Shown piece after piece: positions 8,003 to 57,324 of a stretch of 64,000 bases of DNA; the stretch's first letter is position 1; every line of letters starts with the position of its first letter. The notes under the pieces were generated by a model, which saw nothing but the letters and a program-made list of their open reading frames with translations, had not been told where the DNA came from and searched no databases. The position numbers and the translations under genes were made by a program. Source of the stretch: Bacillota bacterium (GTDB lineage: Bacteria; Bacillota_I; Bacilli_A; Erysipelotrichales; Erysipelotrichaceae); assembly GCA_023249475.1 (NCBI GenBank), contig JAHFCO010000005.1, forward strand, positions 10,870-74,869, given 5' to 3'.

Positions 8003-8059
8003 TCCCTTGCGGGTTTGACCCGTTGCGTGTAGAATAGATAAGTATCAACGGAGAAAACA

Positions 8060-10294: not shown

Positions 10295-10333
10295 AAACCT
10301 AACGGTGATTCCTCACCGAAGGAGACAACAAAA

Positions 10334-24228: not shown

Positions 24229-25296
24229 ATGAGCGATTTACAGTACAGTCAGGTAGCGAAAATCAAAGTCTTCGGAGTCGGCGGGGCAGGATGCAACGCC
24301 ATCAACCGGATGGTGGACGAAGGCTTGCAAGGTGTCGAATTCTACGTCGCCAACACCGATGTCCAAGTGTTGAATATCTCCAACGCGCAAAACAAGATCG
24401 TCCTCGGACGCGATACCACCAAAGGACTCGGAGCGGGGGCCAATCCGGAAATCGGGCGTAAAGCCGCGATGGAAAGCGAAGCGGAAATCCGCGAAGCGAT
24501 CAAGGGTTCCGACATGGTGTTCATCACCGCGGGCTTGGGCGGCGGCACCGGGACCGGTGCGGCGCCGATATTCGCAAAGATCGCCAAGGAACACGGGTGC
24601 CTTACCGTCGGGATCGTCACCAAACCGTTCAGTTTCGAAGGGAAGCGCCGGATGAACCAGGCGTTGGCCGGTCTTGAAGAACTGCGCCAATACGTCGATT
24701 CCCTCATCATCGTCTCCAACAACCAATTGCTTGAAGTCATCGGCCGCATCCCTTTCGTGGAAGCGTTCAAAGAAGCCGACAACGTATTGCGTCAAGGCGT
24801 CCAGACCATCACCGACTTGATCGCCGTCCCTGCGATGATCAACCTCGACTTCGCGGATGTCCGCACGGTCATGGAAGGCCAAGGGACCGCGTTGATCGGG
24901 ATCGGGATGGCCCAGGGCGAATCCAAAGCCTCCGACGCCGCCTCCAAGGCGATCACTTCGCCCTTGCTTGAAGCGCAGATCCGCGGTGCGCGCAACGCCA
25001 TCGTCAACGTCACCGGCGGCAACACCATCACCATCTACGACGCCAACGACGCCGTCGAATACATCCGCGAAGCCGCGGGGCAGGACATCGACATCATCTT
25101 CGGTGTCGCGATCAACGACAAGATCGGCGACAGCATCATCGTCACCGTCATCGCGACCGGCTTCGACCTGCCGCGCCAAAACGTCACGGTCCGTCCGATC
25201 GCCGAAGCCCGCAAGGTCTTCGACGCCATCAAGGAACCCGAACTCGACGCCGACGACGACAGCGACATCCCGAATTTCTTCCGCACAAGAGGTTGA
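24229..25296 (+). CDS. ftsZ: Cell division GTPase FtsZ
   Basis: 355 aa. Contains GVGGAGCNA and the tubulin signature [10 protein letters not shown]. Confidence 0.97.
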
Positions 25297-34363: not shown

Positions 34364-34629
34364 TGCTTCATTTCCTCCATATATACGTATTATTCTATTC
34401 TGAAAATCGACTTTGTCCACAAAAAAATGAAAAAATTATCGGAAAATCTAAAATAAAATCGGAGACTAGGAATAATTATCAATTTTATAACCGTTATCGA
34501 TAATTTATCCCGAGGATGTTCGATACAAAGGAAATTTATATCCTGATTCGGCATTCAAAAAGAGTTGGTTCACCCGGAAAGACTTGTGCTATAATTTTGT
34601 AAGAGGCGGAAGCCAATACGGAGGATATC

Positions 34630-37956: not shown

Positions 37957-38127
37957 GGTTCTCTGCTCCTTCGGCGATGCGGAAGCCCTGTTCATCGGGC
38001 AAGGTCGGGGCGAAGAACGCAACCCGCCGTGGCGGTAAATAAAAAAACAATGACAAAAAGAATGGATCTTTTTTGTCATTGGCTTACGTTTGACTGGCGA
38101 ATGCCTTTCAGTTGTCTTCCAATCGTA

Positions 38128-43399: not shown

Positions 43400-43427
43400 C
43401 AAAAAAAATGAAGCTTTTGGCTTCATT
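43400..43427 (-). terminator. Terminator after apbE (minus strand)
   Basis: AATGAAGC-loop-GCTTCATT, followed on the minus strand by TTTTTTT. Confidence 0.75.
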
Positions 43428-44547
43428 CGTTGTATAAGCGGGAGTAAGGTTTGATGTTTTCGGAGTGCACCAGCGAGAATTCACCGACGTCGATGGCCTG
43501 CGTCCCGGCGGGTTGCATGCCTTTATCATAGACCCAGACGGCACCCATGAAGACATCGGGATGGTCTTCGTTGAACTTCTCCAGGAAGGCGAGGGCTTGG
43601 TCGTAGGGAAGGATGAAGAGGGGTTTCGCCAAGGTGTCCGCCAGACCGGAATCCTCGATCAAGATCGTCACCGAGCGCGCCTGACGCGCGGGATAGAGCG
43701 TGGAAGGATCGATCAAGTGGTGATAGACCACATCGTCGGGTCCGATATAATAGCGCTGGTAATCGCCGGACGTGACGACGGACATCGATTTGTCCGCATA
43801 GAGGGTATCCAGCGATTCGGAGGTGTTTTCGATATCGGGGGATTGGATTCCGACCGCCCATTTCGCCCCGTCGGGTTTCGTGTTGATCAAGCGGACGTTC
43901 CCGCCCGCGTTGACGATGCCGGCCTTCAACCCTTCCTCGACAAGCAAACGGGCGACGATTTCGGTCGCGAAGCCTTTGGCGATCCCGCCGACATCCAAAC
44001 TGGAACAAGCGTTGTTGATATAGACGGTCTTAGCGGATTCATCGATTTCGACGAACTGCCATCCCGTGCAGACGTTCGCTTCTTCAAGCAAATGAAGGGG
44101 AGGGACTTCGCCCGGCTTGCCGTCGGAGTTATCGGCCTGGCCCATGTCGCGATACTCATGCCAGATTTCAAGCACGGAACCCATGGTGACGTTGAACGAC
44201 CCGCCGGACGGCTCGTACCATTCCTTCGCCAGTTTCAGCATGTCGAGGATCGCCTGGTCGACGACGACCGGGGCGATCCCGGCGTTGTCGTTGATGGTCT
44301 TGATGTTGTTGACCCCATCATAATCGTTGTATTTGTCGAAAAGTTCGTTCAACCGGGTGAACTCGTTTTTCATGATTTCAAAATAAGCGTCGAACTCCGC
44401 TTTGTCCTTGGTATATCCGATCAAGGTGATGATCGTATCAAAACCGGCTTCGATGGTCTGATTGGAATATTTCGTGAGGGTTTGCGGCTTCGTACACCCG
44501 GATAAGAGCGCGATCACCAACAAAAAACTTAGTGCTTTTTTTAGCAT
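43423..44547 (-). CDS. apbE: FAD:protein FMN transferase ApbE, lipoprotein
   Basis: 374 aa. Lipobox LLSGC. ApbE-like motifs (LDVGGIAKGFA, VTSGDYQRY). Confidence 0.88.
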   Translation of the reverse strand: MLKKALSFLLVIALLSGCTKPQTLTKYSNQTIEAGFDTIITLIGYTKDKAEFDAYFEIMKNEFTRLNELFDKYNDYDGVNNIKTINDNAGIAPVVVDQAILDMLKLAKEWYEPSGGSFNVTMGSVLEIWHEYRDMGQADNSDGKPGEVPPLHLLEEANVCTGWQFVEIDESAKTVYINNACSSLDVGGIAKGFATEIVARLLVEEGLKAGIVNAGGNVRLINTKPDGAKWAVGIQSPDIENTSESLDTLYADKSMSVVTSGDYQRYYIGPDDVVYHHLIDPSTLYPARQARSVTILIEDSGLADTLAKPLFILPYDQALAFLEKFNEDHPDVFMGAVWVYDKGMQPAGTQAIDVGEFSLVHSENIKPYSRLYNE

Positions 44548-44705: not shown

Positions 44706-45998
44706 ATGTCAATATGGATCGGCGCGATGCAAAAGCATCTCGAGGGACATAAGGGATTGACGGATCATAACGAAATCGTACGCGTCGACGCGGGGAAGTT
44801 CGTCTATATTCCGTTGATGAGTATGTTCTCCACAAATATTGAAGTCCTCGTCAAAGAAGGGGACAGTGTGAAGGTAGGGACGATGATCGCGAAACGCAAC
44901 GATCATATGACCGTACCGTTTTTCTCTTCGGTTTCAGGGAAGGTCGTCGGGAAACAGACGATCATGCATGCGGTGTTGAAACCGCTTGAACATCTGGTGA
45001 TCGAAAACGACGGCTTGTATGAAAAAGAACAACCCTTCTCCCCGATCGACTTCGAAAAAGCGACACGGGAAGAATTGGTCGATTTCATGATGAACGCCGG
45101 GATCGTCGGATGCGGCGGAGCCGGTTTCCCCACGTATATGAAATATAAGAATCCGCAGAACATTTCGACCTTGATCATCAACGCGGTGGAGTGCGAACCG
45201 TACATCACCGCGGATTATCGCGAGATTTCCAACAACATCGATGATTTGGTATTGGGCGTCAAGGCGATGCTGAAACTCAGCACCGCGAAGGAAGCCTGGA
45301 TCGCCATCAAATCCCCGAAGAAGGAACTGATCGCGAAAGTACGCGCCGCCTTGGTCGGCGTGTCCGGCATCGTCGTCAAGGAAGTCCCCGACGTGTATCC
45401 GATGGGTTGGGAGCGTACCTTGGTGTATCAATTGCTGAAAAAGCGCTATGACCGTCTGCCTTCGGAAATCGGATGCATCGTCAATAACGCGACGACCGCG
45501 ATCGCGTTTGCGAAAGCGATCCGCACCGGGATGCCGATCGTCGAGAAGACTTTGACCATCAGCGGCAACGGCATCAAAAACCCGGCCAACGTCAACGTTC
45601 CGGTCGGGGTGAAAACCGCTGAAATCGTCGCCAAACTCGGCGGGTATGCAATCGAAGACGTCCTGTTGATCGCGGGCGGACCGATGATGGGGAAAACCAT
45701 CCCCAACGACCAGTTCGTCGTCACGCCGTACGGGAATGCCGTCACCATCTTGAAGACGGAAAAAATCGATTCGGTCGCCTGTCTGCGTTGCGGACGCTGC
45801 AACGACACCTGTCCCGCGGGGTTGTTGCCGGTACGCATCAACAACGCCGAGCAAGCCGCGGATTTGGACACCATCGTCAAACTCCGTGCGGACCAATGCA
45901 TCGAATGCGGATTGTGCACCTATGTCTGTCCTTCCAAACTGGATGTGGCCGAAGGGGTTCGCCGTGCGAAACGTATTCTTCAGTTGAAAAAGAAATAG
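44706..45998 (+). CDS. rnfC: Rnf complex subunit C
   Basis: 430 aa. GIVGCGGAGFPT and two 4Fe-4S motifs (CLRCGRCNDTCP, CIECGLCTYVCP). Confidence 0.92.
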   Translation: MSIWIGAMQKHLEGHKGLTDHNEIVRVDAGKFVYIPLMSMFSTNIEVLVKEGDSVKVGTMIAKRNDHMTVPFFSSVSGKVVGKQTIMHAVLKPLEHLVIENDGLYEKEQPFSPIDFEKATREELVDFMMNAGIVGCGGAGFPTYMKYKNPQNISTLIINAVECEPYITADYREISNNIDDLVLGVKAMLKLSTAKEAWIAIKSPKKELIAKVRAALVGVSGIVVKEVPDVYPMGWERTLVYQLLKKRYDRLPSEIGCIVNNATTAIAFAKAIRTGMPIVEKTLTISGNGIKNPANVNVPVGVKTAEIVAKLGGYAIEDVLLIAGGPMMGKTIPNDQFVVTPYGNAVTILKTEKIDSVACLRCGRCNDTCPAGLLPVRINNAEQAADLDTIVKLRADQCIECGLCTYVCPSKLDVAEGVRRAKRILQLKKK

Positions 45999-46010
45999 GA
46001 GGAACGAACC

Positions 46011-47504
46011 ATGAAATTCACTTTCCGTGTGTCCCCGAACTATCGGGACCAATTGAGCACGGGTCGGATCATGCGTGATTTGACCATCGGCTTGGGCGTC
46101 ATCTATGCGTTCGCCCTTGCCTACTACTTTACGCAATACAGCAGCAATTACGGCATCCACGCCCTCGGGCTGATGGCGACCTCGTTGATCGTCGCCTTCC
46201 TCACCGAAGTGGCCTTCGCCTATTTCACCAAAAAGAAGGTTAAGACGCATCTCTTGGGATCTTACCCTTGGGTCACGGCGATCATCCTGACCTTGATGGT
46301 CCCCATCGCGACGTCCTACTTCGCCTTGGGTTTCGGTACGTTCTTCGCGATTTTCTTCGGAAAACTCGTGTTCGGCGGATTCGGACAAAACATCTTCAAC
46401 CCCGCGGCCGCCGGTCGCGCCGCGATGCTTGCATCGTTCGCAGGGGTCGCCGTCACGGACATCACGACGTCCGCCACGCCGACCGCCTCGATCGCCCAGC
46501 TTGGCTGGATGATCGACAAACCCGAAGCGGTCACGAAATTCCTCGACCAATTCGGCGGTTTGCAGAACATGTTCTTGGGACTTTATCCCGGTGCCTTGGG
46601 CGAAACGTCCAAAGTCCTGATCCTTGTGGTCATGGTGTTCCTGATCATCCGCAAGGTCATCGACTGGCGCATCCCCGTCTTCTACCTTTCCACCGTCTTC
46701 GTATTGGCCAGCCTCATCGCCGTATCCAAAGGCATGGGTTTCTGGTATCCCTTGTTCCATCTTTCCACCGGAGGCTTGGTCTTCGGCGCCGTCTTCATGG
46801 CGACCGACCCCGTCACCAACCCGACATCCGCCAGCGGACGCACCTTGTTCGCGATCGGCTTGGGGATTTTGACGGTCTTGATCCGCGTGAAGGCGAACCT
46901 GCCGGAAGGCGTTCTGTACTCCATCTTATTGATGAACATGCTGACCCCGTCCATCGAGTTGTTGACCGACGGATGGCAGATCAAGAATGTTAAGAAATAT
47001 GCGATTTCCTTCGCGTCGTTATCCTTGATCGGGATCCTCTTGGTTTTCGGGGTTTCCACCACGATGAGTTATAAAGCCCCGGTCGTCCCTGAAGAACCGA
47101 CCATCACCTTGGGTGATCCGGTCGGGATTTTCTCCGATGAAACGGCGCTTGCCCCGGCGACCGTGACCGACAAGGTCACCGAAGGGGACATCGTCACCTT
47201 GACCGTCTCCTCCAAAGGGTATGCGGTGTTGCAGGACGACCATAGCGAAGACCCCCAGCCCAACGTCTTGATCGTCAAGATCGATACCGTGAAGCAGGAA
47301 GTCGTAAGCGTCGCCTATGCGACCTTCAGCGATACGACGAACATCGGGGACAAGACGAAAAATGCGAAGTTCCTCGACCAGTTCGCAGGCTTGTCGATCG
47401 TCGATGAAGCCGCCGAAGTCGATGTTGTTTCCGGTGCGACCTATACCTCGGTCTCCGTCGCCCGCGCAGTCCGTGCGGCCATCGAAGCCGTATTGGCACA
47501 ATAA
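46011..47504 (+). CDS. rnfD: Rnf complex subunit D fused to a C-terminal extra TM helix plus an FMN_bind-like domain
   Basis: 497 aa. NqrB/RnfD core (GGFGQNIFNPAAAGRA, DITTSATP, ATDPVT), then YAISFASLSLIGILLVFGV, then a ~130-aa domain ending VDVVSGATYTS. Confidence 0.9.
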   Translation: MKFTFRVSPNYRDQLSTGRIMRDLTIGLGVIYAFALAYYFTQYSSNYGIHALGLMATSLIVAFLTEVAFAYFTKKKVKTHLLGSYPWVTAIILTLMVPIATSYFALGFGTFFAIFFGKLVFGGFGQNIFNPAAAGRAAMLASFAGVAVTDITTSATPTASIAQLGWMIDKPEAVTKFLDQFGGLQNMFLGLYPGALGETSKVLILVVMVFLIIRKVIDWRIPVFYLSTVFVLASLIAVSKGMGFWYPLFHLSTGGLVFGAVFMATDPVTNPTSASGRTLFAIGLGILTVLIRVKANLPEGVLYSILLMNMLTPSIELLTDGWQIKNVKKYAISFASLSLIGILLVFGVSTTMSYKAPVVPEEPTITLGDPVGIFSDETALAPATVTDKVTEGDIVTLTVSSKGYAVLQDDHSEDPQPNVLIVKIDTVKQEVVSVAYATFSDTTNIGDKTKNAKFLDQFAGLSIVDEAAEVDVVSGATYTSVSVARAVRAAIEAVLAQ

Positions 47505-47514
47505 GGAGGGCAAC

Positions 47515-48456
47515 ATGAAAAAAGCACTCTATTTAGCAGCGTTTCTGGCGCTGACAAGCGCCTTGGCCGGCGCCGTGTTGGCCGGTGTGAACTCCCTCAC
47601 CGCGCCGATCATCAATGATCGCGCCATCGCCGCCGTCAAAGCGACCTTGCAGGAGTTCTTCCCGCAAGCCGATGAATTCTCCGAATTGGATTTCGAAGAT
47701 GAAACCGGACTCATCACCAACGTCTATCAGGCCAAAGACGCAGGCTATGCCTACAACGTCAAGGTTCAAGGATATAAGGATGTGATCACCTTCGTGGTCG
47801 CGTTCTCCGAAGATGCCGAAATCGTCGGATTCAAAATCACCTTCATCAACGATACCCCGGGTATCGGAAGCCGCGTCGGCGAAGATGAGTTCAGCAACGG
47901 TGTCATCGGAAAAGGCAGCACCGATGCGATCGCCACGCTGTCCGGAGCCACCGTTTCATCGAGCTCGGTCGTTAAAGGCATCAACGCGGCGAAAGCGCAT
48001 TTCAACGCGATGAAAGGCATCAAGGATGACGGAACGTCCGTTCCCGATCCCGTCGAGCCCGTCATCACGCTGGGCGAACCCGTCGTGATCGTCTCCGATG
48101 CGACCGCGACTTCCCCGGCCGAAATCCTGGAGAAGACGACCGATGGCAACATCACCACCTACCGCGTCTCCGCCAAAGGCTATGCGGTGTTGGAAGACGA
48201 ATATAGCGAAGACCCCAAACCCAATGTCTACGTCATCAAGATCGACGATACCGCCAATACGGTGGTCAGCGTCGCGTATGAAACTTTCAGCGATACCGAG
48301 AACATCGGGGACAAGACGGATTCCGAAACGTTCTTGAAACAGTTCGAAGGCTTATCGTTGAGTGACGCCACCGCGTCGGTCGATGTCGTGACCGGAGCGA
48401 CCTATACATCCATCAGTGCCGCCCGTGCTTTACGCGCGGTCGTCGAAAGCCGATAG
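47515..48456 (+). CDS. rnfG: Rnf complex subunit G with two FMN_bind domains
   Basis: Within ORF 47317..48456. ATG 47515 follows AAGGAGGG. N-terminal anchor, first domain with LSGATVSS, second domain with VDVVTGATYTS. Confidence 0.85.
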   Translation: MKKALYLAAFLALTSALAGAVLAGVNSLTAPIINDRAIAAVKATLQEFFPQADEFSELDFEDETGLITNVYQAKDAGYAYNVKVQGYKDVITFVVAFSEDAEIVGFKITFINDTPGIGSRVGEDEFSNGVIGKGSTDAIATLSGATVSSSSVVKGINAAKAHFNAMKGIKDDGTSVPDPVEPVITLGEPVVIVSDATATSPAEILEKTTDGNITTYRVSAKGYAVLEDEYSEDPKPNVYVIKIDDTANTVVSVAYETFSDTENIGDKTDSETFLKQFEGLSLSDATASVDVVTGATYTSISAARALRAVVESR

Positions 48457-48469
48457 GGAGGAGAACCAC

Positions 48470-49108
48470 ATGAAAAAATTCTTCACCGGTTTGATTTTGG
48501 ATAATCCGGTCTTCGGATTGTTCCTTGGGATTTGTTCCACCCTGGCGATCACCATCAACCTCAACAATGCGTTGGGCATGGGGGTTTCCGTCATTTTGAT
48601 TCTTATCGCATCCAATGTCATCATCTCGGCGATCCGCAAAATCACCCCCGATGAAATCCGCATCCCGGTCTACATCGTGGTCATCGCGACCTTGGTCAAG
48701 GCGGTCGAACTGCTGATCAAGGCCTATGCGCCGGCGATCGACGTCGCCCTTGGCGTATTCATCCCCTTGATCGTCGTCAACTGCATCATTCTCGGCCGCG
48801 CCGAAGCCTTCGCCTCGAAAAACGGGATGTTGGCATCCGCCTGGGACGGATTCACCATGGGGGTCGGCTATATCCTTGGCTTGGTCGTCATGTCGCTGAT
48901 CCGTGAAATCCTCGCGACCGGCATCGTCGAAATGGTCAACCCGTTCAACGACGCCTTGATTTTCAGCGTTCGATTGGTCCCGGCCGAATTCAGCATCAGT
49001 ATGTTCAGTCAACCGGTCGGCGCGTTCTTGACCTTCGCGGTCATCGCCGCGGGTGTCGCGGCCTTCCGCGATAAAGTCGAAGCGCAGACGAAGAAGGAGG
49101 CGAAGTAA
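48470..49108 (+). CDS. rnfE: Rnf complex subunit E
   Basis: Within ORF 48416..49108. NPVFGLFLGICSTLA and PLIVVNCIILGRAEAFA. Confidence 0.92.
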   Translation: MKKFFTGLILDNPVFGLFLGICSTLAITINLNNALGMGVSVILILIASNVIISAIRKITPDEIRIPVYIVVIATLVKAVELLIKAYAPAIDVALGVFIPLIVVNCIILGRAEAFASKNGMLASAWDGFTMGVGYILGLVVMSLIREILATGIVEMVNPFNDALIFSVRLVPAEFSISMFSQPVGAFLTFAVIAAGVAAFRDKVEAQTKKEAK

Positions 49109-49109
49109 G

Positions 49110-49685
49110 ATGGATAAACTATTTGCACTCTTCATGACGGCTTTCCTCATCAACAACATCATCCTGACGAAGTTCTTGGGGATGTGTCCGTTCTTGGGGG
49201 TTTCCAGACAACGCAGTTCCGCGATCGGGATGGGGTTGGCGGTCATCTTCGTCATCCTCGGCGCCTCGATCTTCACCTATGTCCTCTATTATTCCGTCCT
49301 GGTTCCCCTGGAACTCGAATACATGGACCTGATCACCTTCATCTTGGTCATCGCGGCGTTCGTCCAGTTCGTCGAATTGGTCCTGAAAAAATATTCCCCC
49401 GCGCTCTACAAAGCGTTGGGGATCTACCTGCCGTTGATCACCACCAACTGCGTCGTCTTGTACGTCACCTTGGAAAACATCACCAACAAGTTCGATTTCG
49501 TCGAAATGATCGTCTATTCCATCGCCGTCCCGGCGGGTTTCGCGTTGATGTTGTTCATCTTCTCGACCATCCGCGAACGCCTGGATATCGCGACCACGCC
49601 GAAGCCGTTCCGCGGCAACGCGCTTGCCTTGGTCCTCGCGGCCATCATGGCCTTGGCCTTCAGCGGCTTGGCCGGATTGGTCTAG
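49110..49685 (+). CDS. rnfA: Rnf complex subunit A
   Basis: Within ORF 49053..49685. NNIILTKFLGMCPFLGVS and LPLITTNCVVL. Confidence 0.92.
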   Translation: MDKLFALFMTAFLINNIILTKFLGMCPFLGVSRQRSSAIGMGLAVIFVILGASIFTYVLYYSVLVPLELEYMDLITFILVIAAFVQFVELVLKKYSPALYKALGIYLPLITTNCVVLYVTLENITNKFDFVEMIVYSIAVPAGFALMLFIFSTIRERLDIATTPKPFRGNALALVLAAIMALAFSGLAGLV

Positions 49686-49688
49686 TCC

Positions 49689-49871
49689 ATGGAAGCGGCA
49701 CTGTATATCGGGGCGCTTGGCGCATTCTACGCCGTCGCCTATTATCTCAACCACAAGACGCCGGTACCGGCGGGATGTGAGGATTTGAAAGCAAGTTGTA
49801 ACGGATGCGCCATCGGTTCTTGTGGCAACCATCCTTCACATCAGATAGTCAAGGAGGAAAACCGCGCATGA
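49689..49871 (+). CDS. 60-aa membrane-anchored Cys-rich peptide encoded between rnfA and rnfB
   Basis: One TM helix (AALYIGALGAFYAVAYYL) then C-x6-C-x2-C-x4-C. The start is 3 nt after the rnfA stop and the stop overlaps the rnfB ATG (ATGA). Confidence 0.4.
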   Translation: MEAALYIGALGAFYAVAYYLNHKTPVPAGCEDLKASCNGCAIGSCGNHPSHQIVKEENRA

Positions 49872-50173
49872 TTCAGGCAATCTTAATGATGTTGGTGGTC
49901 GGGGGCGTCCTCGGTTTGGTCTTAGGGATCGCCGGGATCTACTTCAAGGTCGAAGTCGACCATCGTTTGGAAACGGTGACCACGATGCTTCCGGGATACA
50001 ACTGCGGAGCCTGCGGCTTCCCGGGATGTTCCGGATTAGCGACGGCGATCGTCGACGGGAAAGCCACTTCGGCTTCCTGCAAACCGGCGAAACCCGAACA
50101 ACGCGAACGCATCACGACCTACATGGCGACCGGAGAAGATCCTTTCGCAAAAGTCGAACCTCAAAAAGCATAA
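49868..50173 (+). CDS. rnfB: Rnf subunit B, N-terminal part only (membrane anchor plus RnfB-type Fe-S domain); no ferredoxin-like domains
   Basis: Within ORF 49805..50173. 101 aa, ATG after AAGGAGGAAAA. Cys spacing C-x2-C-x4-C-x16-C. A terminator follows immediately. Confidence 0.75.
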   Translation: MIQAILMMLVVGGVLGLVLGIAGIYFKVEVDHRLETVTTMLPGYNCGACGFPGCSGLATAIVDGKATSASCKPAKPEQRERITTYMATGEDPFAKVEPQKA

Positions 50174-50178
50174 GTCGA

Positions 50179-50207
50179 AGATACAGGAAATTCCTGTATC
50201 TTTTTTC
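50179..50207 (+). terminator. Terminator of the rnf operon
   Basis: AGATACAGG-AAATT-CCTGTATCT followed by TTTTT. Confidence 0.88.
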
Positions 50208-50274: not shown

Positions 50275-51963
50275 ATGGTTCAGGACATTTTAAATAACAT
50301 TATCGTGAATATCGCGATCCTCATGATCATCGGCTTCATTCTTCCACGCTTCTCATGGTTCCGCAAGACCGTGTTCGAACACGACAAAAAGTGGTTGGAC
50401 ATCGTCCTTTTGTCGATGATTTTCGGAGGCATCGGGATCCTTGCGACCTACACCGGTATCCGCATCAACGGGGCCATCGCCAACACGCGGGTCATCGGGG
50501 TCATCGCCGGCGGCTTCCTGGGCGGTCCGTGGGTCGGTCTTCTCTCCGGCTTGATCGCCGGTCTTCATCGCTGGGCGATCGACATCAACGGGTTCACGGC
50601 GTTCTCCTGCGCGGTCTCGACGATCATCGAAGGGATCATCGGCGGACTGATGTATAAGTCCATCCGTTCTTCGGAAAACAAATACTACCTGATCTTCGGT
50701 GCGACGTTTGTGGCCGAGGTCATCCAGATGCTGGTCATCCTGTTGATCGCCCGTCCGTTCGACGACGCGGTCGCCTTGGTCAAGGTCATCTCCGTCCCGA
50801 TGGTTTTCCTGAATTCGATCGGGATCGTCGTCTTCATCAACGGCATCTATAACGTCAAGGAAACCCTGGACCGCGCCAATGCGCGGCATTTGAAACTGGC
50901 CTTCGACATCGCCGACTGGTGCCTGCCTTTCCTAAGAAAAGGGTTGCATGACAAGGAAAGCATCGGCAACGCCTGTTCGACCATTTTGAAAAACATCGAC
51001 AGCACCTGCGTCATCCTCACCGACAACAAGCAAGTCGTCGCTTATGCCGGCGTGGACATTCCAAAACAGAGCGGATTCATGAAATTGTTCGACCATGTGT
51101 TCAAACGGATTTCAGAGCGAAAAGAAAGTGTCATCCTGCATGAAGGGGAAGTCAGCAAATACGATCTGGAACGATTCGCGAAGCGGTTCATGTTCTCGCC
51201 GATCTACCGCAACGAGCAAGTGATCGGCACCATCATCATCTGCGATAACCGCTTTAAGGACAATGTGGGTCCGGATCTGGGGTTCATCGACGGCTTGTCG
51301 AAACTTTTCTCTTCGCAATTGGCCTTGGCCGAAATGGACAACCAAGGGAAGTTGCTGCAGAAAGCCGAACTACGCGCCCTGCAGTCGCAAATCAACCCCC
51401 ACTTTCTCTTCAATGCGTTGAATACGATCAGCGGGTATACCCGTGAAAACCCGGACCGGGCGCGGCAACTGTTGCTCGCGCTGGCTTCCTATTTCAGAAA
51501 CACCTTATCCACCCATACCGAATGGGTGGATATCCAGGAAGAGATCGAGCATGTGTTGTCCTATGTCGAGATCGAAAAAGCCCGTTTCGAGGAACGTTTG
51601 AGCGTCAACATCCATTGTTCGCCGGATTGTCGCTACAGCGTGCCCAACTTCGTCATCCAACCTTTGATCGAGAATGCGATCAAGCACGGCATGACGTCCA
51701 ACTCCCTACGCGTCGATGTGACCATCGAAGAACACCGCAACGGACTCAACATCGTGGTCAAGGACAACGGGTGCGGGATCGCGCAAGATAAGATCGAGAC
51801 ATTCTACCAAGGGAATGCGGACAAGGGGAAGATCGGGATGGCGAACATCCACCAACGTCTCAAGAGCATCTATCCCAACAACCCGGGACTGGTCATCCAT
51901 AGCAAACTCAACCACGGAACCACCATCCAGATGTTCCTGCCGAAAGGAAGTGCCGCCGCATGA
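50275..51963 (+). CDS. LytS/YehU(BtsS)-type sensor histidine kinase
   Basis: 562 aa. 5TM-LYT-type N-terminus, a GAF-like middle region, LQSQINPHFLFNALNTI (His_kinase) and a HATPase domain. Confidence 0.9.
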   Translation: MVQDILNNIIVNIAILMIIGFILPRFSWFRKTVFEHDKKWLDIVLLSMIFGGIGILATYTGIRINGAIANTRVIGVIAGGFLGGPWVGLLSGLIAGLHRWAIDINGFTAFSCAVSTIIEGIIGGLMYKSIRSSENKYYLIFGATFVAEVIQMLVILLIARPFDDAVALVKVISVPMVFLNSIGIVVFINGIYNVKETLDRANARHLKLAFDIADWCLPFLRKGLHDKESIGNACSTILKNIDSTCVILTDNKQVVAYAGVDIPKQSGFMKLFDHVFKRISERKESVILHEGEVSKYDLERFAKRFMFSPIYRNEQVIGTIIICDNRFKDNVGPDLGFIDGLSKLFSSQLALAEMDNQGKLLQKAELRALQSQINPHFLFNALNTISGYTRENPDRARQLLLALASYFRNTLSTHTEWVDIQEEIEHVLSYVEIEKARFEERLSVNIHCSPDCRYSVPNFVIQPLIENAIKHGMTSNSLRVDVTIEEHRNGLNIVVKDNGCGIAQDKIETFYQGNADKGKIGMANIHQRLKSIYPNNPGLVIHSKLNHGTTIQMFLPKGSAAA

Positions 51964-52676
51964 AATTCCTGATCGTGGACGATGAGCGCATCGCCCGCAG
52001 CGAGTTGAAATACTGCATCAAGGAAGTCGATCCGAATTTCGCGGTTTTCGAAGCCGACAACGTGGACAGCGCTTTGGAAATGGTATCCAATGTGGAATTG
52101 GACGGAGCGTTCCTCGATGTCCAGCTTCCGGAAAGTTCGGGCGTTGAACTGGCGGAGAAAATCCGTCTGATCAAACCGGAACTGCCCATCGTCTTCGCCA
52201 CCGCCTACGACAACTACGCGATCGACGCGTTCGCCGTCAATGCGGTCGATTATGTTTTAAAACCGTTTCGTACCGACGACATCTCCCGCGCCTTACAGCG
52301 GATAACGCGCAATACGACCAAAACCCCGGTGCAGACTTGCCCAAGCGATAAACTGTCGGTGTGGATGGGTGAAAAAGCGGTCGTCGTCAACATCAACGAT
52401 ATCTACTACCTGACAAGCAATGAGAGGCAGACGTTGTTGGTGACGAAAAAAGGGGAATTGTCGACCAACCAGTCTTTGGATGCGATGGAGAAGCGCTTGA
52501 TCACCTGCGGATTCATGCGCGTCCAACGCGGATACATCGTGAATCTGAACCATGTGGCCGAAATCGTCCCGTGGTTCAACAACACCTACGGAATCAAGTT
52601 ATCCAACAATGTCGGCGACGTCATCCCGGTCAGCCGGCAGAAAATCTCGCTTCTACGCGAAGTCTTCGATTTTTAA
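51960..52676 (+). CDS. LytTR-family response regulator
   Basis: 238 aa. Receiver domain (VDDE..., LDVQLP) and a LytTR DNA-binding domain (FMRVQRGYIVNL). The start overlaps the kinase stop. Confidence 0.9.
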   Translation: MKFLIVDDERIARSELKYCIKEVDPNFAVFEADNVDSALEMVSNVELDGAFLDVQLPESSGVELAEKIRLIKPELPIVFATAYDNYAIDAFAVNAVDYVLKPFRTDDISRALQRITRNTTKTPVQTCPSDKLSVWMGEKAVVVNINDIYYLTSNERQTLLVTKKGELSTNQSLDAMEKRLITCGFMRVQRGYIVNLNHVAEIVPWFNNTYGIKLSNNVGDVIPVSRQKISLLREVFDF

Positions 52677-52719
52677 TCTTCTTTTCCTACAATTCAGTCG
52701 AAAAAATTCGCACTTCAAG

Positions 52720-52750
52720 CCCCGTGTAAGCGATTGCACCGGGGTTTTTG
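52720..52750 (+). terminator. Imperfect hairpin plus T-run between the response regulator and cstA
   Basis: CCCCG(T)GT...ACCGGGG followed by TTTTT. It may act as an attenuator rather than a full stop. Confidence 0.45.
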
Positions 52751-52787
52751 CTATCATAGGGTCATTCAAAGGAGGAATAGGAAAACT

Positions 52788-54197
52788 ATGATTAGTTTCT
52801 TCGCAGCATTGGCAACCTTGCTCGTCGGTTACTTCCTGTATGGAAAAGTCGTCGAGAAAGCGTTCAAACCGGACGATCGTCCGACCCCCGCGACCCTCGT
52901 TAACGACGGCGTGGATTACGTTCCGATGAAGAAATGGAACATCTTCTTGATTCAATTGCTGAACATCGCCGGCTTGGGCCCGATCTTCGGCGCCATCTCC
53001 GGAGCTCTCTGGGGACCGGTCGTCTTCTTCTGGATCGTCTTCGGATCCATCTTCGCAGGGGCTGTCCACGATTACCTTTCCGGAATGATCTCGATGCGTC
53101 ACAACGGCGCGTCCATTTCCGAAATCGTCGGTACGTACCTCGGCAAAGAAATGAAGCAAGTCATGCGTGTCTTCTCCGTCATCCTGTTGGTTCTCGTCGG
53201 CGTCGTCTTCATGGTCGGTCCGGCTGGCTTATTGGCCAAGCTTACCCCTGAAGTCCTCGACGTGAAGTTCTGGTTGATCGTCGTCTTGATTTACTACTTC
53301 GCAGCGACCATTCTTCCGATCGACAAACTGATCGGTAAAATCTATCCGATTTTCGGTGTCACCTTGATCATCATGGCGGTCGGCGTCGCCGGCGGCATCA
53401 TCCTTCAAGGCTACAACATGCCTGAAATCACCCTCGCCAACCTGCATCCCGCAGGGGCTCCGATTTGGCCTCTGATGTTCATCACCGTCGCGTGTGGCGC
53501 GATCTCCGGTTTCCATGCCACCCAATCGCCGATGATGGCACGTTGTATCACGACCGAAAAACAAGGCCGTACGATTTTCTACGGTGCCATGATCGCCGAA
53601 GGCGTCATCGCGCTTGTTTGGGCCGCCGCCGGTGTCGCGTTCTATGAAACGACCGGTGGATTGGCAGCCGCCATCAAAGAATTCGGCGGAGCCGCAGGCG
53701 TCGTCTACAATATCACGTTTACCCTCTTAGGCCCGGTCGGCGGCGTCCTTGCGATGTTGGGCGTTATCGCCTGTCCGATCACTTCCGGCGATACCGCGTT
53801 CCGTTCCGCACGTTTGACCTTGGCGGACTGGTTCGGATATGACCAGAAGCCGATTAAGAACCGTCTCATCGTCGCCGTTCCTTTATTGGCGATCGGCTAC
53901 ATGATCACGTTTGTCGACTATGCAGTCATCTGGCGTTACTTTGCCTGGTCCAACCAAACCTTGGCGATGATGGCTCTCTGGGCCGGTGCGGTTTATCTGA
54001 AGAAAGTCGGTGCCGTCCACTGGATCGCCACCGTCCCCGCTACCTTCATGAGCGCGGTCAGCGTCACCTACATCCTACAAGCCGCCGAAGGATTCAAACT
54101 TCCGACGTCGATTTCCTACCCGGGCGGCATCGTCTTCGCGGTAGCCTGTCTGACACTGTACATGGTGAAAGTCGGAGCGAAAAAAGCAACAGTCTAG
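52788..54197 (+). CDS. cstA: Carbon starvation protein CstA-family transporter (short form, BtsT-like)
   Basis: Within ORF 52734..54197. LLNIAGLGPIFGAISGALWGP and ACGAISGFHATQSPMMAR motifs. ATG follows AAAGGAGG. Confidence 0.9.
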   Translation: MISFFAALATLLVGYFLYGKVVEKAFKPDDRPTPATLVNDGVDYVPMKKWNIFLIQLLNIAGLGPIFGAISGALWGPVVFFWIVFGSIFAGAVHDYLSGMISMRHNGASISEIVGTYLGKEMKQVMRVFSVILLVLVGVVFMVGPAGLLAKLTPEVLDVKFWLIVVLIYYFAATILPIDKLIGKIYPIFGVTLIIMAVGVAGGIILQGYNMPEITLANLHPAGAPIWPLMFITVACGAISGFHATQSPMMARCITTEKQGRTIFYGAMIAEGVIALVWAAAGVAFYETTGGLAAAIKEFGGAAGVVYNITFTLLGPVGGVLAMLGVIACPITSGDTAFRSARLTLADWFGYDQKPIKNRLIVAVPLLAIGYMITFVDYAVIWRYFAWSNQTLAMMALWAGAVYLKKVGAVHWIATVPATFMSAVSVTYILQAAEGFKLPTSISYPGGIVFAVACLTLYMVKVGAKKATV

Positions 54198-54207: not shown

Positions 54208-54236
54208 GAAAGGTTGGAAACAACCTTTCTTTCTTA
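54208..54236 (+). terminator. Terminator after cstA
   Basis: GAAAGGTTG-GAAA-CAACCTTTC followed by TTTCTT. Confidence 0.8.
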
Positions 54237-54252
54237 CATCAGGAGGGAACCC

Positions 54253-54864
54253 GTGGATCTACATACACTTGCCACCGTCTTTACAAACAACCATATGCCT
54301 TCCGTCGTGTTGAAAAACAAGGAAGACGTTCTTGCCTACTTGCGTGAACAAATCGTCGACGAGAGCACCGTCGCGGTCGGAGGGTCGACGACCCTGTTCC
54401 AATTCGGGATCATCGATGATCTACGCTCGCGCAATCTGAATTTCTTCGATCGTTACGCCCCGGGCTTGACGCCGGCGCAAATCCAGGAAGTGTTCCATCA
54501 GTCGTTCAACGCGGATGCGTACATCGCCTCCGCCAACGCGGTGACCCACAAAGGTGAAATCGTCAACATCGACCGTACCGGAAACCGGGTCGCGGCGATG
54601 ATGTACGGACCCAGGAAGGTCTACTTGATCGTCAGCGCATCGAAAGTCGTCAAGGACCTCGATGAAGCGCGTGAGAGGATCCGCAGCGTCGCGGCTCCGA
54701 AAAACGCCCAGCGTTTGAATTTGAAAACACCCTGCGCCCAAACCGGGCATTGCATGGATTGCGAAAGCCCGGACCGTCTTTGCGCCTTTGAAACCGTGAT
54801 CAAACGGCAGGCGATCAAAGATCGGATCCATGTTATACTCGTAGAGGAACAAGGAGGATTCTGA
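54253..54864 (+). CDS. LUD-domain (LutC/YkgG-like) protein, paralog 2
   Basis: Within ORF 54214..54864. The TTG at 54214 lies inside the terminator stem, so GTG 54253 (5 nt after AGGAGGG) is preferred. Colinear with 7370..8002, including the Cys cluster CAQTGHCMDCESPDRLC. Confidence 0.7.
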   Translation: MDLHTLATVFTNNHMPSVVLKNKEDVLAYLREQIVDESTVAVGGSTTLFQFGIIDDLRSRNLNFFDRYAPGLTPAQIQEVFHQSFNADAYIASANAVTHKGEIVNIDRTGNRVAAMMYGPRKVYLIVSASKVVKDLDEARERIRSVAAPKNAQRLNLKTPCAQTGHCMDCESPDRLCAFETVIKRQAIKDRIHVILVEEQGGF

Positions 54865-55883
54865 TGAATTACGCAGAAATCAAAGCCGCGGCGAAAGAGA
54901 AGATGTCCGTCTGCAAGATGTGCCGCACTTGCAACGGCGAGACGTGCCGGGGGTGGACCCCGGGACCAGGCGGAAAGGGGAGCGGAAGCAGTTTCGTCCG
55001 CAATGTCTCGAAACTCCGTGAAATCACCTTGAACATGCGTACGCTGCACTCGGATGTCGATGTGGATTGCGGCGTCACGCTCTTCAATGCCAAGATGAAA
55101 GCGCCGATCTTCGCGGCGCCGATCGCCAACGTACCGGTGAATTACGGGTCGAGCGTATCGGAAGCGGATTATCTGGAGGCGCTTGCCAAAGGATGCAAGG
55201 AGGCCGGCGTCCTGCCGTTTTTCGGGGACGGGGCGGCGAAGGAATTCTTCGACTTGCCGCTTGAAACGATGGGTCGCCATGACGGTTTCGGGATCCCGAC
55301 CATCAAACCGTGGGTCAACGAGATCGCGATCGAAAAAATCAAACGCGCGCTCGCATTGAATCCGGTGGCGATCGCGATGGATGTGGATGCGGCTGGTCTG
55401 GTAAGTTTAAAGAAAACGCCGACACCCATCGCATTCAAGACCTTGGAAGATTTGAAAATCATCAAGGAACAGATCCATGTCCCGTTCATCGTCAAGGGGA
55501 TCATGACGATCGAGGATGCGGAAATCGCCTTGTTGGCGGGCGCGGATGCAATCGTGGTTTCCAACCATGGCGGAAGGGTCATGGATGAAGGGGTCGCCAC
55601 CATCGAAGTGTTGGAAGGAATCGTGGACTTCGTGGCGAAACGCTGTCTGGTGTTGACCGACGGCGGGTATCGCAGCGGCTATGATGTATTTAAAGCCTTG
55701 GCGCTTGGCGCCGACGGCGTATTGGTCGGCCGGCCGTATTCCCACGTCGCGATCGGCGGGGGCAGCGAAGGGGTTTCGTTGTACACGCGGCAGTTGATCG
55801 GCGAACTGGAGGATGCGATGCGGATGACGGGATGCGCGACGCTGAGCGACATTCGCCGCAACGCCATCAACGTCGGTTTCTAA
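54864..55883 (+). CDS. FMN-dependent alpha-hydroxy-acid oxidising enzyme (lactate oxidase/dehydrogenase-like) with an N-terminal Cys cluster
   Basis: 339 aa. VSNHGGR motif and TIM-barrel FMN-dehydrogenase pattern. N-terminal CKMCRTCNGETC. Confidence 0.85.
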   Translation: MNYAEIKAAAKEKMSVCKMCRTCNGETCRGWTPGPGGKGSGSSFVRNVSKLREITLNMRTLHSDVDVDCGVTLFNAKMKAPIFAAPIANVPVNYGSSVSEADYLEALAKGCKEAGVLPFFGDGAAKEFFDLPLETMGRHDGFGIPTIKPWVNEIAIEKIKRALALNPVAIAMDVDAAGLVSLKKTPTPIAFKTLEDLKIIKEQIHVPFIVKGIMTIEDAEIALLAGADAIVVSNHGGRVMDEGVATIEVLEGIVDFVAKRCLVLTDGGYRSGYDVFKALALGADGVLVGRPYSHVAIGGGSEGVSLYTRQLIGELEDAMRMTGCATLSDIRRNAINVGF

Positions 55884-55975: not shown

Positions 55976-56341
55976 ATGAAATCCATTATCCTCTCAGCAG
56001 CCTTCAGCGTATTGACTTTCGGCGTCGGTCTCGCCATGATCTACTTCATTCTCTTCGACCATGTGAACAGCCAAACCCGCTCCTTACTGAAGCGCGGGTT
56101 ACAGGAAACCATACTTCAAGTCTCCGCTCTTCCGATCGAATCCCGCCGCGGCCAAGTCCTACGGATCTTCGCCGATTTCATCCGTCCGGATCTTCTGGAC
56201 GGCTACCGGACCACGGTGGATCTGATGGACATGAGCGTCGACCCCTTGGCCATACGGATTCGATTGAACGTCGTCGCGACCAACCTGCTCTTCCCGATTT
56301 CGGTTTCGTCCGATGAGACCATCGTGGAGGTCAAGCCATGA
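55976..56341 (+). CDS. Membrane-anchored protein, first gene of the Tad-like locus (possible TadE/G-like minor pilin or assembly factor)
   Basis: 121 aa. N-terminal hydrophobic helix followed by a beta-rich part. Translationally coupled to the ATPase gene (ATGA overlap). Confidence 0.45.
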   Translation: MKSIILSAAFSVLTFGVGLAMIYFILFDHVNSQTRSLLKRGLQETILQVSALPIESRRGQVLRIFADFIRPDLLDGYRTTVDLMDMSVDPLAIRIRLNVVATNLLFPISVSSDETIVEVKP

Positions 56342-57324
56342 TCGGTCCGCTCGACTTCGGGATCCTGCAGCCGTTCGTGGATGACGACAAAGTCACGGAC
56401 ATCAACTACAACGGGAAGCAATGTTGGATCGACCATCTGAAACAAGGCCGTTTCACGGTGGAACCGTTTAGCGCCCATGAGTTCATGAACCAACTGGCGT
56501 TCAAACTGGCCAATCGCGTCAACCTCTCCTTCAACACCTCTTCCCCCGTCGTCGAAGCCGAGTTCGGCGACCTTCGCATCAGCATGGTACATCCCAGCGT
56601 TTGTCCCGAGGGGATGAGCCTCTCTCTTCGAAAAACCCCGGCGGTATGCCGATTGAACGACAAGGACATGGTTAAGTCCGGATACTGCGAACCCTGGGTC
56701 CTCGCGTTTTTGAAAGAAGCCGTCTTACGTAAGCGGAACATTCTCGTCAGCGGTCTCCCCGGCGCGGGGAAGACCGAACTGGTGAAATACTTGATGCAGT
56801 TCATCCCGCCCTCGCAACGCGTCATCACGATCGAAGATACGCTTGAACTACGCTATGGCGACCTCTATCCGCACAAGGACCATGTGTCCATGAAAGTCTC
56901 GGAACATTTCGATTATGCCCGGGCGATCAAGACGAGCCTCCGTCAACGTCCGGATTGGATCTGCGTATCCGAAGTCCGCGGCTTGGAGATCGTATCTCTG
57001 ATGCAAAGCGTATCGACCGGAGCGAACCTGCTCAGCACCATCCATGCGGAAGGCGCGGCACAGATCCCGCAGCGCATCCTGCATATGCTTCCCGGGCTTC
57101 ATTTGACGGATACGGCGATGCGCCATCTTGTCTATGAATCCATCGACATCGGGATCCATCTTGAATGCAAAGCGGGTGTCCATGGAATCAAACGGAGGAT
57201 ACGCGAAATCGTCGCCTATCATGTGGAAGAGGATCAGGTAAGCATGATCAAGATCTTTGATATCGATCAGCCGAACGATCCCGTCACGTTGGATGAACTT
57301 CCCAAAAAGGGAGGAAGACGATGA
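56338..57324 (+). CDS. CpaF/TadA-type secretion ATPase (type II/IV secretion NTPase family), short form
   Basis: 328 aa. Walker A GLPGAGKT, Asp box ITIEDTLEL, Walker B-like PDWICVSEVRG and His box LSTIHA. Confidence 0.88.
   Translation: MIGPLDFGILQPFVDDDKVTDINYNGKQCWIDHLKQGRFTVEPFSAHEFMNQLAFKLANRVNLSFNTSSPVVEAEFGDLRISMVHPSVCPEGMSLSLRKTPAVCRLNDKDMVKSGYCEPWVLAFLKEAVLRKRNILVSGLPGAGKTELVKYLMQFIPPSQRVITIEDTLELRYGDLYPHKDHVSMKVSEHFDYARAIKTSLRQRPDWICVSEVRGLEIVSLMQSVSTGANLLSTIHAEGAAQIPQRILHMLPGLHLTDTAMRHLVYESIDIGIHLECKAGVHGIKRRIREIVAYHVEEDQVSMIKIFDIDQPNDPVTLDELPKKGGRR

Follow-up and report, generated by a model that had tools for sequence, protein, structure and literature searches.

An Rnf operon of the Erysipelotrichaceae with FMN_bind modules appended to both RnfD and RnfG

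The Rnf complex is a central energy-conserving redox pump of many anaerobes, and every published Rnf structure or mechanism that we know of describes a closed, U-shaped electron path between ferredoxin and nicotinamide adenine dinucleotide (NAD+). What, then, are additional flavin-binding domains doing at the C-termini of two Rnf subunits? This question is raised by a stretch of 64,000 nucleotides (nt) from a Bacillota bacterium of the Erysipelotrichaceae (assembly GCA_023249475.1, contig JAHFCO010000005.1, positions 10,870 to 74,869), hereafter called the window, to which all positions refer unless a locus of a relative is named. Its rnf operon (44706-50173, forward strand) encodes all six Rnf homologs in the order C-D-G-E-A-B, with apbE divergently upstream on the reverse strand, as read from the list of open reading frames (ORFs), Pfam, and phmmer. 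Both RnfD and RnfG end in an extra module of the FMN_bind family, named for flavin mononucleotide (FMN). The anatomy, conservation, and motifs of this variant are described first, followed by the outward electron transfer to which they may point.

The extensions of RnfD and RnfG

A preliminary description of the locus, made from the letters alone, had ended the recognizable core of the 497-amino acid (aa) RnfD near residue 330 and placed after it an additional hydrophobic helix, a Pro/Glu-rich linker, and a domain of ~130 residues. This layout is borne out in each of its parts (Table 1). The solved RnfD chains of Acetobacterium woodii (9ERI_D, 318 aa) and Clostridium tetanomorphum (7ZC6_D, 310 aa) cover residues 3-320 only, so that everything past residue ~325 is an addition. 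The core has RnfD and NqrB chains as its best structural neighbors in Foldseek and keeps the covalent-FMN site, T156 in DITTSAT (codon 46476-46478), as well as the riboflavin-pocket residues N127 and D266, which correspond to N123 and D249 of A. woodii RnfD (PMC11889175). Most of the compared loci conserve N127, D150, T156, and D266.

Directly after the conserved segment DGWQIKNVKKY comes the eleventh transmembrane (TM) helix, TM11, whose hydrophobic stretch at residues 331-349, AISFASLSLIGILLVFGVS, has a Kyte-Doolittle value of 2.23, the joint highest in RnfD. The position is hydrophobic in all 30 aligned homologs, and K328 and K329 are nearly invariant. Homology to the linker between the two RnfG domains begins at RnfD P360 in BLASTP. 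The tail that follows matches FMN_bind above the Pfam threshold and holds a predicted flavinylation site, T477 in DVVSGAT (codon 47439-47441); D471 and T477 are invariant in 30 homologs with identities down to 48%. An AlphaFold model of the tail alone reached a predicted local distance difference test (pLDDT) score of 89.6 and a predicted TM-score (pTM) of 0.85, and its best neighbors in the PDB are RnfG (9ERI_G, 7ZC6_G) and NqrC, with a root-mean-square deviation of 2.9-3.4 Å over ~122 columns, and also domain 1 of CbFMN4 (Foldseek). In the model of full-length RnfD, the eleventh helix, linker, and tail superpose on entire RnfG and NqrC chains, and NCBIfam models for RnfG also match RnfD residues 403-494. 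Because of this structural match and the RnfG match within the tail, the RnfD extension is, in effect, a second RnfG-like subunit, consisting of an anchor helix and an FMN domain, fused to the end of RnfD.

RnfG had been described as having its usual anchor and FMN_bind domain followed by a second domain, and hydropathy and two Pfam FMN_bind stretches agree with this. Its predicted flavinylation sites are T146 in LSGAT (codon 47950-47952) and T296 in DVVTGAT (codon 48400-48402). The alignment of the two appended modules, first counted by eye at about 80 identities over ~129 positions without gaps, becomes 83 identities over 134 positions (62%) in BLASTP, again with no gaps (E 4e-56). At the DNA level, the tails (47088-47489 and 48049-48450) are 68.4% identical and share a longest exact run of 19 nt; the nonsynonymous (dN) and synonymous (dS) substitution rates between them are 0.32 and 0.78, a dN/dS of ~0.41. 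Among 128 FMN_bind domains from 82 loci, the two are reciprocal best BLAST matches. The window comes from a metagenome-assembled genome (MAG), and misassembly can yield direct repeats, but both frames are intact with conserved catalytic motifs, and the same architecture is found again in 110 of the 120 top homolog clusters and in isolate genomes such as that of Proteiniclasticum ruminis. With 68% nucleotide identity, so short a longest exact run, and a dN/dS of ~0.4, an artefact of assembly or annotation, or a recent duplicate that is non-functional or decaying, has practically no chance of being the explanation and was rejected. The appended modules are a diverged pair of paralogs under purifying selection.

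On which side of the membrane do these modules lie? Canonical RnfD has ten TM helices, and its N- and C-terminal loops bind cavities in the cytoplasmic RnfC (Kumar et al. 2025, PMC11889175). As the canonical C-terminus is cytoplasmic, one extra hydrophobic helix would deliver the RnfD tail to the outer face, which is where the preliminary description had predicted it. The distribution of charges agrees with this: the segment KNVKKY, with three lysines, precedes the helix, and the tail is acidic (10 K+R vs 22 D+E). Comparison with relatives speaks for it even more strongly. In other lineages, RnfG, a protein with a periplasmic soluble part, carries the same module at its C-terminus or is replaced by it, which is compatible with an outer-face placement only; in ten loci that have an RnfD-fused module and no rnfG, the fused module would have to do the outer-face job of RnfG. 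In all likelihood, both tails are located on the outer face and are flavinylated by the adjacent ApbE. The divergent gene, noted earlier as encoding an ApbE lipoprotein, has the Pfam match and the lipobox expected of one (Table 1), and both tails contain Dxx[ST]GA[TS], the ApbE motif. An apbE gene occurs in many related loci and lies divergently upstream of rnfC in L003, one of the loci surveyed below. The earlier count of up to four flavinylation sites is matched by the motifs, which predict four covalent-FMN sites per complex (T156 and T477 of RnfD, T146 and T296 of RnfG), three of them on mobile outer-face domains.

The remaining redox subunits keep their canonical ligands throughout: those of RnfC for NADH, FMN, and two [4Fe-4S] clusters, N127, T156, and D266 of RnfD, all four cysteines of the intramembrane [2Fe-2S] cluster (C26 and C114 of RnfA, C22 and C105 of RnfE), and the four cysteines of RnfB. 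RnfC passes NCBIfam TIGR01945 with 341.7 bits (cutoff 245.95), and the gene at the rnfE position in related loci has a Pfam Rnf-Nqr match. RnfD stays just under its NCBIfam cutoff (204.5 vs 207.05 bits), as RnfG does by more (61.3 vs 102). The RnfB of the window is a mini-RnfB of 101 aa, whose ATG at 49868 is preceded by a GGAGG ribosome-binding site; it aligns to positions 5-95 of the 190 of the rnfB model TIGR01944 only (61 bits, cutoff 68.7), and no polyferredoxin domain was found in it, either by Pfam or as a CxxCxxCxxxC motif. In RnfB, the C-terminal domain with its 2-7 [4Fe-4S] clusters accepts ferredoxin (PMC11889175, PMC12174285). The mini-RnfB corresponds to the flexible membrane-proximal cluster domain. 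An Rfam scan for an FMN riboswitch or another RNA near the operon gave one tRNA as the sole match in the window.

Table 1 Features of the rnf operon and the divergent apbE gene (window positions)
Feature	Position	Strand	Evidence and remarks
apbE, flavin transferase lipoprotein	43423-44547	-	Pfam ApbE, E 2.5e-63; N-terminus MLKKALSFLLVIALLSGC = lipobox (LLSGC)
rnfC, NADH/FMN subunit, two [4Fe-4S] motifs	44706-45998	+	Pfam RnfC_N, Complex1_51K, SLBB, and Fer4 families
rnfD, whole gene	46011-47504	+	497 aa
rnfD core, residues 1-325, 10-TM RnfD/NqrB fold	46011-46985	+	Pfam NQR2_RnfD_RnfE (PF03116) 6-319, E 1.2e-78
rnfD extra 11th TM helix, residues 327-351	46989-47063	+	Hydropathy; AlphaFold helix 327-351; absent from solved RnfD structures
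rnfD Pro/Glu-rich linker MSYKAPVVPE, residues 352-361	47064-47093	+	Sequence; low pLDDT at 356-359
rnfD appended FMN_bind module, residues 362-497	47094-47501	+	Pfam FMN_bind (PF04205) 421-492, 34.1 bits, cutoff 22
rnfG, whole gene	47515-48456	+	313 aa, ATG 47515; two Pfam FMN_bind stretches
rnfG membrane anchor, residues 1-26	47515-47592	+	Hydropathy 2.13 over 7-25; aligns to 7ZC6_G anchor
rnfG canonical FMN_bind domain, residues 27-166	47593-48012	+	Pfam FMN_bind 86-159; 7ZC6_G phmmer E 6.6e-13 over 6-168
rnfG linker 167-180 and appended FMN_bind module 181-313	48013-48453	+	Second Pfam FMN_bind stretch; paralog of RnfD tail
rnfE, [2Fe-2S] ligands C22 and C105 present	48470-49108	+	phmmer assignment, cysteine survey
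rnfA, [2Fe-2S] ligands C26 and C114 present	49110-49685	+	phmmer assignment, cysteine survey
mini-rnfB, 101 aa, TM helix and one CX2CX4CX16C [4Fe-4S] domain	49868-50173	+	Pfam FeS (PF04060) sole match
Terminator-like hairpin closing rnfCDGEAB	50177-50203	+	12-bp stem then T run, 4 nt past rnfB stop

Distribution and reduced forms among relatives

The architecture of the window RnfD is common among its relatives. PF03116 and PF04205 occur together in 110 of the 120 best RnfD homolog clusters (48-99% identity, 474-606 aa), whose named sources include Erysipelotrichaceae and Erysipelotrichales MAGs, Anaerorhabdus, P. ruminis, and 'Firmicutes HGW-10'; the match at 99% identity comes from an Erysipelotrichaceae MAG (2.27-Mb contig). 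We then compared 80 species-representative loci, retrieved with an alignment of full-length RnfD as query, together with the loci of the window, P. ruminis, and Anaerorhabdus, using our own pipeline of ORF calling, phmmer, and hmmsearch; the counts given here are over 82 loci. The extra RnfD helix is accompanied in 47 loci by a mini-RnfB, which has 86-103 aa, an FeS domain as its only domain, and no CxxCxxCxxxC motif, whereas a canonical RnfD, ending 10-29 aa past the core, is found with an RnfB of 256-304 aa in 22. One locus departs from this split (L075) and one is borderline (L045). L075, from an uncultured member of the Clostridiales (MGYG-HGUT-00733), is the sole locus that has both a long RnfD extension and a full-length polyferredoxin RnfB; the extension runs for 288 aa past the core and includes a hydrophobic helix, with no FMN_bind match. 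We call the lineage-specific Rnf variant to which the window belongs 'Bacilli-type'; it is found in Erysipelotrichales, in Acholeplasma and RF39-like Bacilli, and in Proteiniclasticum.

Within these relatives, a complex has 0, 1, 2, or 3 extra modules. With D and G standing for the modules appended to RnfD and RnfG, respectively, the D1+G1 pattern of the window is shared by L001, L003, L005, L007, L008, and L021. Two modules are also present as D2+G0 (L009, L011, L025, L026) or D0+G2 (L027, L028, L030), and three as D2+G1 (Solobacterium, L018, L019, L024) or D3+G0 (L023, L029). Several loci are D1+G0 and several others D0+G1, and in Holdemanella biformis (L014) and others the eleventh helix stands alone with no extra domain. 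The FMN_bind modules, of which a locus has one to four in all, are thus portable and interchangeable between the C-termini of RnfD and RnfG. Ten RF39/'Tenericutes'-like loci (L034, L035, L037, L038, L039, L041, L043, L046, L047, L063) read rnfC, rnfD with the eleventh helix and FMN_bind, rnfE, rnfA, and mini-rnfB, with no rnfG, an arrangement that is a natural RnfD-RnfG fusion.

Tails of the same genome are usually each other's best match, at ~61-62% identity in the window, 65% in Anaerorhabdus, and 76% between the second and third RnfD modules of L023; the two tails of P. ruminis are only 34% identical. At the other end of the range, the last RnfD tail and the RnfG tail of Solobacterium L018 (8423-8794 vs 9365-9742) are 99% identical in amino acids and 95% in nucleotides (89% nt in L024), which indicates a very recent duplication or ongoing gene conversion between the rnfD and rnfG 3′ ends. 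The tails thus evolve in concert, and the array is remodeled by repeated duplication or gene conversion between the direct repeats at these 3′ ends. Outside Rnf, the proteins most closely related to the tail contain multiple FMN_bind domains, up to 13 of them in a row of repeats.

Two reduced forms bear directly on function. P. ruminis (GCA_000701905.1, JNKC01000008.1, L001) and a related Clostridiaceae MAG (L005) have RnfD proteins 51-54% identical to that of the window and the same D1+G1 layout, and all four [2Fe-2S] cysteines are replaced (G and S in RnfA, T and S in RnfE; 9017-9679 and 8437-9075 in L001). Both loci keep rnfC, the cofactor residues of RnfD, and both extra flavin modules. 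In the P. ruminis operon, rnfB is absent after rnfA; the L005 contig is too short to tell. Since P. ruminis lacks rnfB and the [2Fe-2S] ligands there, the sole path left would be the one between NADH, RnfC, RnfD, and the outer flavins. The other form is found in L040, a low-GC (guanine plus cytosine) genome of 1.49 Mb (OW818670.1), where 5710-8797 encodes RnfC and a 612-aa RnfD with the eleventh helix and a pair of FMN_bind domains, each with the motif DTVSGAT; rnfG, E, A, and B are all missing from the 7 kb on either side. Directly downstream in L040, at 8997-10388 and 10642-12270, two genes encode Gly-rich proteins whose N-termini (KGFTLIELLAVI) are of the prepilin type. Nature offers a series that runs from the full complex to one without rnfG, to one without rnfB and the [2Fe-2S] site, and to rnfC and rnfD alone. 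This series amounts to ready-made constructs for asking whether RnfC-RnfD alone can move electrons across the membrane, and how a mobile RnfG-type domain hands electrons on.

A proposed outward electron port and its alternatives

We lean towards the reading that the Rnf of the window is a Bacilli-type variant with an intact core chain and two tethered outer FMN modules that act as an outward electron port. In such a complex, electrons from NADH would reach the FMN on RnfD or RnfG through RnfC and RnfD, and low-potential electrons could also enter via the mini-RnfB and the RnfA/E cluster. From either of these flavins, electrons might hop to the tethered extra ones. Three outer FMN_bind domains would be held on flexible tethers next to the RnfD FMN, and the extra flavins could form a short modular relay on the outer face. 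Electrons would then pass on to extracytosolic acceptors, for example flavinylated reductases, soluble flavins, metals, or O2, and reverse flow is possible. Rnf would become a branch point between the cytosolic NADH/ferredoxin pools and the redox chemistry outside the cell. The preliminary description had suggested that the complex may exchange electrons with an external partner, either besides classical ferredoxin:NAD+ coupling or in its place. Such export is something that we infer solely by comparison. It is supported by the two degenerate relatives, as the Proteiniclasticum and L040 forms keep the extra flavins without rnfB and the [2Fe-2S] ligands or without rnfG, E, A, and B, and so do the nearest non-Rnf relatives of the tail, because multi-FMN_bind proteins are regarded as extracytosolic electron wires (PMC8238504, PMC10339131). 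A second, outward route had also been proposed independently for RNF clusters with a multi-flavinylated RnfG (PMC8238504).

Several observations weigh against an outward port. The window has no other FMN_bind or Dxx[ST]GA[ST] protein in a hidden Markov model (HMM) and motif scan, and its 20 flanking genes, searched with Pfam for a partner, are only housekeeping, lactate-utilization, LytS/LytTR, probable CstA, and Tad-type genes. When the flanking ORFs of the 47 variant loci were clustered, no reductase family recurred beside the operon, the recurrent families being only a CpaB-like membrane protein, PGI, an LtaS-like sulfatase, and antisense artefacts. The RnfA/E cysteines and the mini-RnfB of the window are intact, and the complex could be mainly a ferredoxin(-like):NAD+ pump whose extra flavins have an internal role. 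Some relatives with the eleventh helix and a mini-RnfB, such as Holdemanella, have no extra domain at all, so the extras must be dispensable for the core function. The gene losses of Proteiniclasticum and L040 were read over a flank of ~7 kb, and copies of rnfB, E, or A elsewhere are possible. Covalent FMN, topology, and activity are predictions for every member of the variant.

What such an internal role might be can be specified. The extra flavins may be an electron buffer, or a docking or gating partner of RnfG, whose mobile domain moves back and forth between RnfA/E and RnfD, and in this way tune a conventional ferredoxin (or flavodoxin):NAD+ ion pump with a mini-RnfB. The ligands of the U-shaped path are all intact in the window, no partner gene is found in the window or recurs in the neighborhoods, and close relatives differ in how many extra domains they have (0 to 3), as expected of an accessory rather than an essential module; the movement of RnfG is, moreover, mechanistically central (PMC12174285). 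We nevertheless regard an exclusively internal role as unlikely. It leaves the Proteiniclasticum-type complexes, with two extra modules and neither [2Fe-2S] ligands nor rnfB, without a function, as it does the locus that consists of rnfC and an rnfD with two FMN_bind domains, and the nearest relatives of the module outside Rnf are long multi-FMN repeat proteins. Somewhat less improbable, though still doubtful, is that the two tails form an obligate heterodimer, a pseudo-symmetric two-flavin unit of the 'FMN-bind2' kind known from the Light laboratory, which clamps RnfD to RnfG on the outer face and is either structural or a two-electron relay. FMN-bind2 domains are ~160 aa long, have insertions at beta1/beta2 and beta3/alpha1, occur in even numbers, and form two-flavin units by beta-sheet pairing, one example being an Erysipelotrichaceae protein (Huang et al. 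2024, PMC10979944). In favor of such a unit, each tail is most closely related to the other, Solobacterium keeps its last RnfD tail 95% identical in nucleotides to its RnfG tail, and D1+G1, D2+G0, and D0+G2 each amount to two extra domains. However, one or three extra modules are as common as two, and the modules counted per complex show no parity, so that an even-number rule was discarded. The module also has ~135 aa rather than ~160, its best structural matches are the single-domain RnfG and NqrC, and gene conversion between direct repeats ~950 bp apart explains the identity within genomes equally well.

A third possibility concerns the acceptor. The outer flavins may serve chiefly to dispose of NADH-derived electrons at the cell surface, onto O2 or other oxidants, and thereby protect an anaerobe rather than feed a dedicated respiratory reductase; the multi-flavinylated SaFMN3, once reduced, is quick to react with O2, and its authors have discussed a function as an oxidase or O2 scavenger (PMC10339131). 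Such a defense would also explain why no dedicated partner gene is nearby. It is, however, a special case of the external port that differs in the acceptor alone, and the covalent outer-face flavins of NQR and RNF are not known to act in this way, which makes it very improbable as the main function.

The outward port, which we continue to prefer, can also be taken one step further. Because the two-gene locus of L040 and the Proteiniclasticum operon without RnfB and [2Fe-2S] ligands point there, we tentatively entertain, as a possibility short of an even chance, that RnfC, RnfD, and FMN_bind domains tethered to RnfD or RnfG are a self-sufficient transmembrane conduit from NADH to the outside. 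This would be a respiratory module in its own right, more than a ferredoxin:NAD+ pump with decorations, and RnfA/E and the mini-RnfB would be an optional branch of it that couples energy or lets in low-potential electrons. If so, it might provide a link, so far missing, that does without quinones and drives extracytosolic flavoprotein reductases or extracellular electron transfer in the Erysipelotrichaceae and in related Bacilli of gut and rumen; the number of its outer flavins would be tuned fast as the 3′ ends of rnfD and rnfG duplicate and undergo gene conversion. The Erysipelotrichaceae have been described as possessing large arsenals of respiratory-like reductases, in a study that never mentions Rnf (bioRxiv 10.1101/2022.12.26.521950). 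The variant makes the wiring of cytosolic NADH to extracytosolic redox chemistry in quinone-poor gut Bacilli directly testable.

Gene neighborhood and comparison with known systems

Directly 3′ of the rnf terminator, 50275-54197 encodes a LytS-like histidine kinase, a LytTR response regulator, and a large membrane protein, presumably CstA; the LytS/LytTR genes might be the local regulatory context of the operon. They are followed at 54214-55883 by adjacent genes for a LUD-domain protein and an FMN-dependent alpha-hydroxy-acid dehydrogenase (FMN_dh), which suggest the oxidation of lactate or hydroxy acids as a possible source of reducing equivalents. A membrane protein of 230-250 aa is present in 10 Erysipelotrichales loci (10261-10965 in L003, 4972-5724 in L020, and eight others) and lies 3′ of rnfB in L003 and L020. 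It looks CpaB/RcpC-like, to judge from its sequence, the L003 copy having no recorded Pfam match. In the window, a T2SSE (Tad-type) ATPase is found ~6 kb downstream (56338-57324). The proximity of CpaB-like and Tad-type genes to rnf is probably a matter of synteny, not function. Upstream of the operon are genes for an archaeal-type phosphoenolpyruvate carboxylase (Pfam PEPcase_2; 36346-38079, reverse strand) and a type III glutamine synthetase (32288-34420, reverse strand). Farther away, an ORF of 415 aa (22966-24213) with no Pfam match at E 1e-5 directly precedes ftsZ (24229-25296), a place where FtsA is expected.

Is this architecture already known? The preliminary description had left the question open, and the answer is divided: a multi-flavinylated RnfG and an outward pathway were published in 2021, and the fusion to RnfD was not found in the literature. 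The RNF clusters of that work have several flavinylated domains on RnfG and a proposed second pathway to extracytosolic acceptors (Meheust et al. 2021, eLife, PMC8238504). The outward-port concept and the multi-flavinylated RnfG therefore have a precedent; the RnfD fusion and the reduction series were not found described. The literature searched by full text had no mention of the fusion of RnfD, the eleventh helix, and FMN_bind, of RnfD-RnfG fusions in loci without rnfG, of the mini-RnfB and its close association with the eleventh helix, of the Proteiniclasticum form without [2Fe-2S] ligands, or of the two-gene form. Neither 'fusion' nor 'fused' occurs in the text of a 2025 review of RNF and NQR, and in the part of the supplementary tables of Meheust et al. 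that was covered, the NqrB/RnfD-NqrF fusion is the sole RnfD (PF03116) architecture listed. The combination of RnfD and FMN_bind is nonetheless visible in precomputed Pfam annotation, and NCBI names some members 'FMN-binding protein'. Annotation wavers between this name and 'RnfD', and a survey that requires a full-length RnfB for RNF will miss the variant. The RnfD fusion and the reduction series would surprise specialists of Rnf and Nqr.

The window has the same six genes in the same order as the canonical Rnf of A. woodii, C. tetanomorphum, and Azotobacter vinelandii (9ERI, 7ZC6, 8AHX). Its RnfD core is 34-36% identical to the solved RnfD chains and keeps the FMN threonine and the riboflavin residues, and the first RnfG domain, the [2Fe-2S] cysteines of RnfA/E, and the NADH, FMN, and FeS modules of RnfC are common to both. 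It differs in the eleventh helix and FMN_bind module of RnfD, in the second FMN_bind domain of RnfG, and in an RnfB that consists of a TM helix and a single membrane-proximal [4Fe-4S] domain, without the ferredoxin dock of 2-7 clusters; RnfD, RnfG, and RnfB are all below the curated NCBIfam cutoffs. Predicted covalent flavins tethered to RnfD and RnfG on the outer face, next to an RnfB without a ferredoxin dock, point to an open branch that leads out of the cell.

With the RNF clusters of Meheust et al. (PMC8238504), the window shares an RnfG with two FMN_bind domains, an adjacent ApbE, and an RnfB homolog, here the mini-RnfB. In those clusters, however, the extra domains are on RnfG alone, and RNF is defined by RnfB (K03616); in our survey, this type is represented by L077 and L079 (Christensenella), which have a canonical RnfD and a long RnfB. 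The flavin array of the window is, by contrast, partly fused to RnfD via a new TM helix and combined with a mini-RnfB, and its relatives lose rnfG, rnfB, or the [2Fe-2S] site. A different economy is seen in the NQR/RNF-like two-subunit systems described by the same group, in which an NqrB/RnfD-like domain is fused to an NqrF-type NAD-binding domain and accompanied by an RnfG/NqrC-like protein (PMC8238504, PMC10979944). They are proposed to be one-way conduits from NAD(P)H to an outer FMN, a logic that the Proteiniclasticum type and L040 resemble. Their C-terminal fusion is cytosolic and their RnfD-like flavinylation threonine lost. In the window, the threonine of RnfD is retained, the input of NADH would be through RnfC, and the fusion, an FMN_bind module behind an additional TM helix, is predicted to be extracytosolic.

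Finally, the tails share the FMN_bind fold, the Dxx[ST]GA[ST] motif, and the predicted outer-face location with SaFMN3, CbFMN4 (8P2B), and PplA of the flavin-based extracellular electron transfer system of Listeria, proteins of the class to which the tails are most similar in sequence outside Rnf. The tails have the longer fold of ~120-135 aa seen in RnfG and NqrC and not the ~80-aa domain of the CbFMN4 type. SaFMN3, CbFMN4, and PplA are free lipoproteins or secreted proteins with quinone-dependent or unknown electron donors, whereas the corresponding domains of the window are built into two subunits of the Rnf complex itself.

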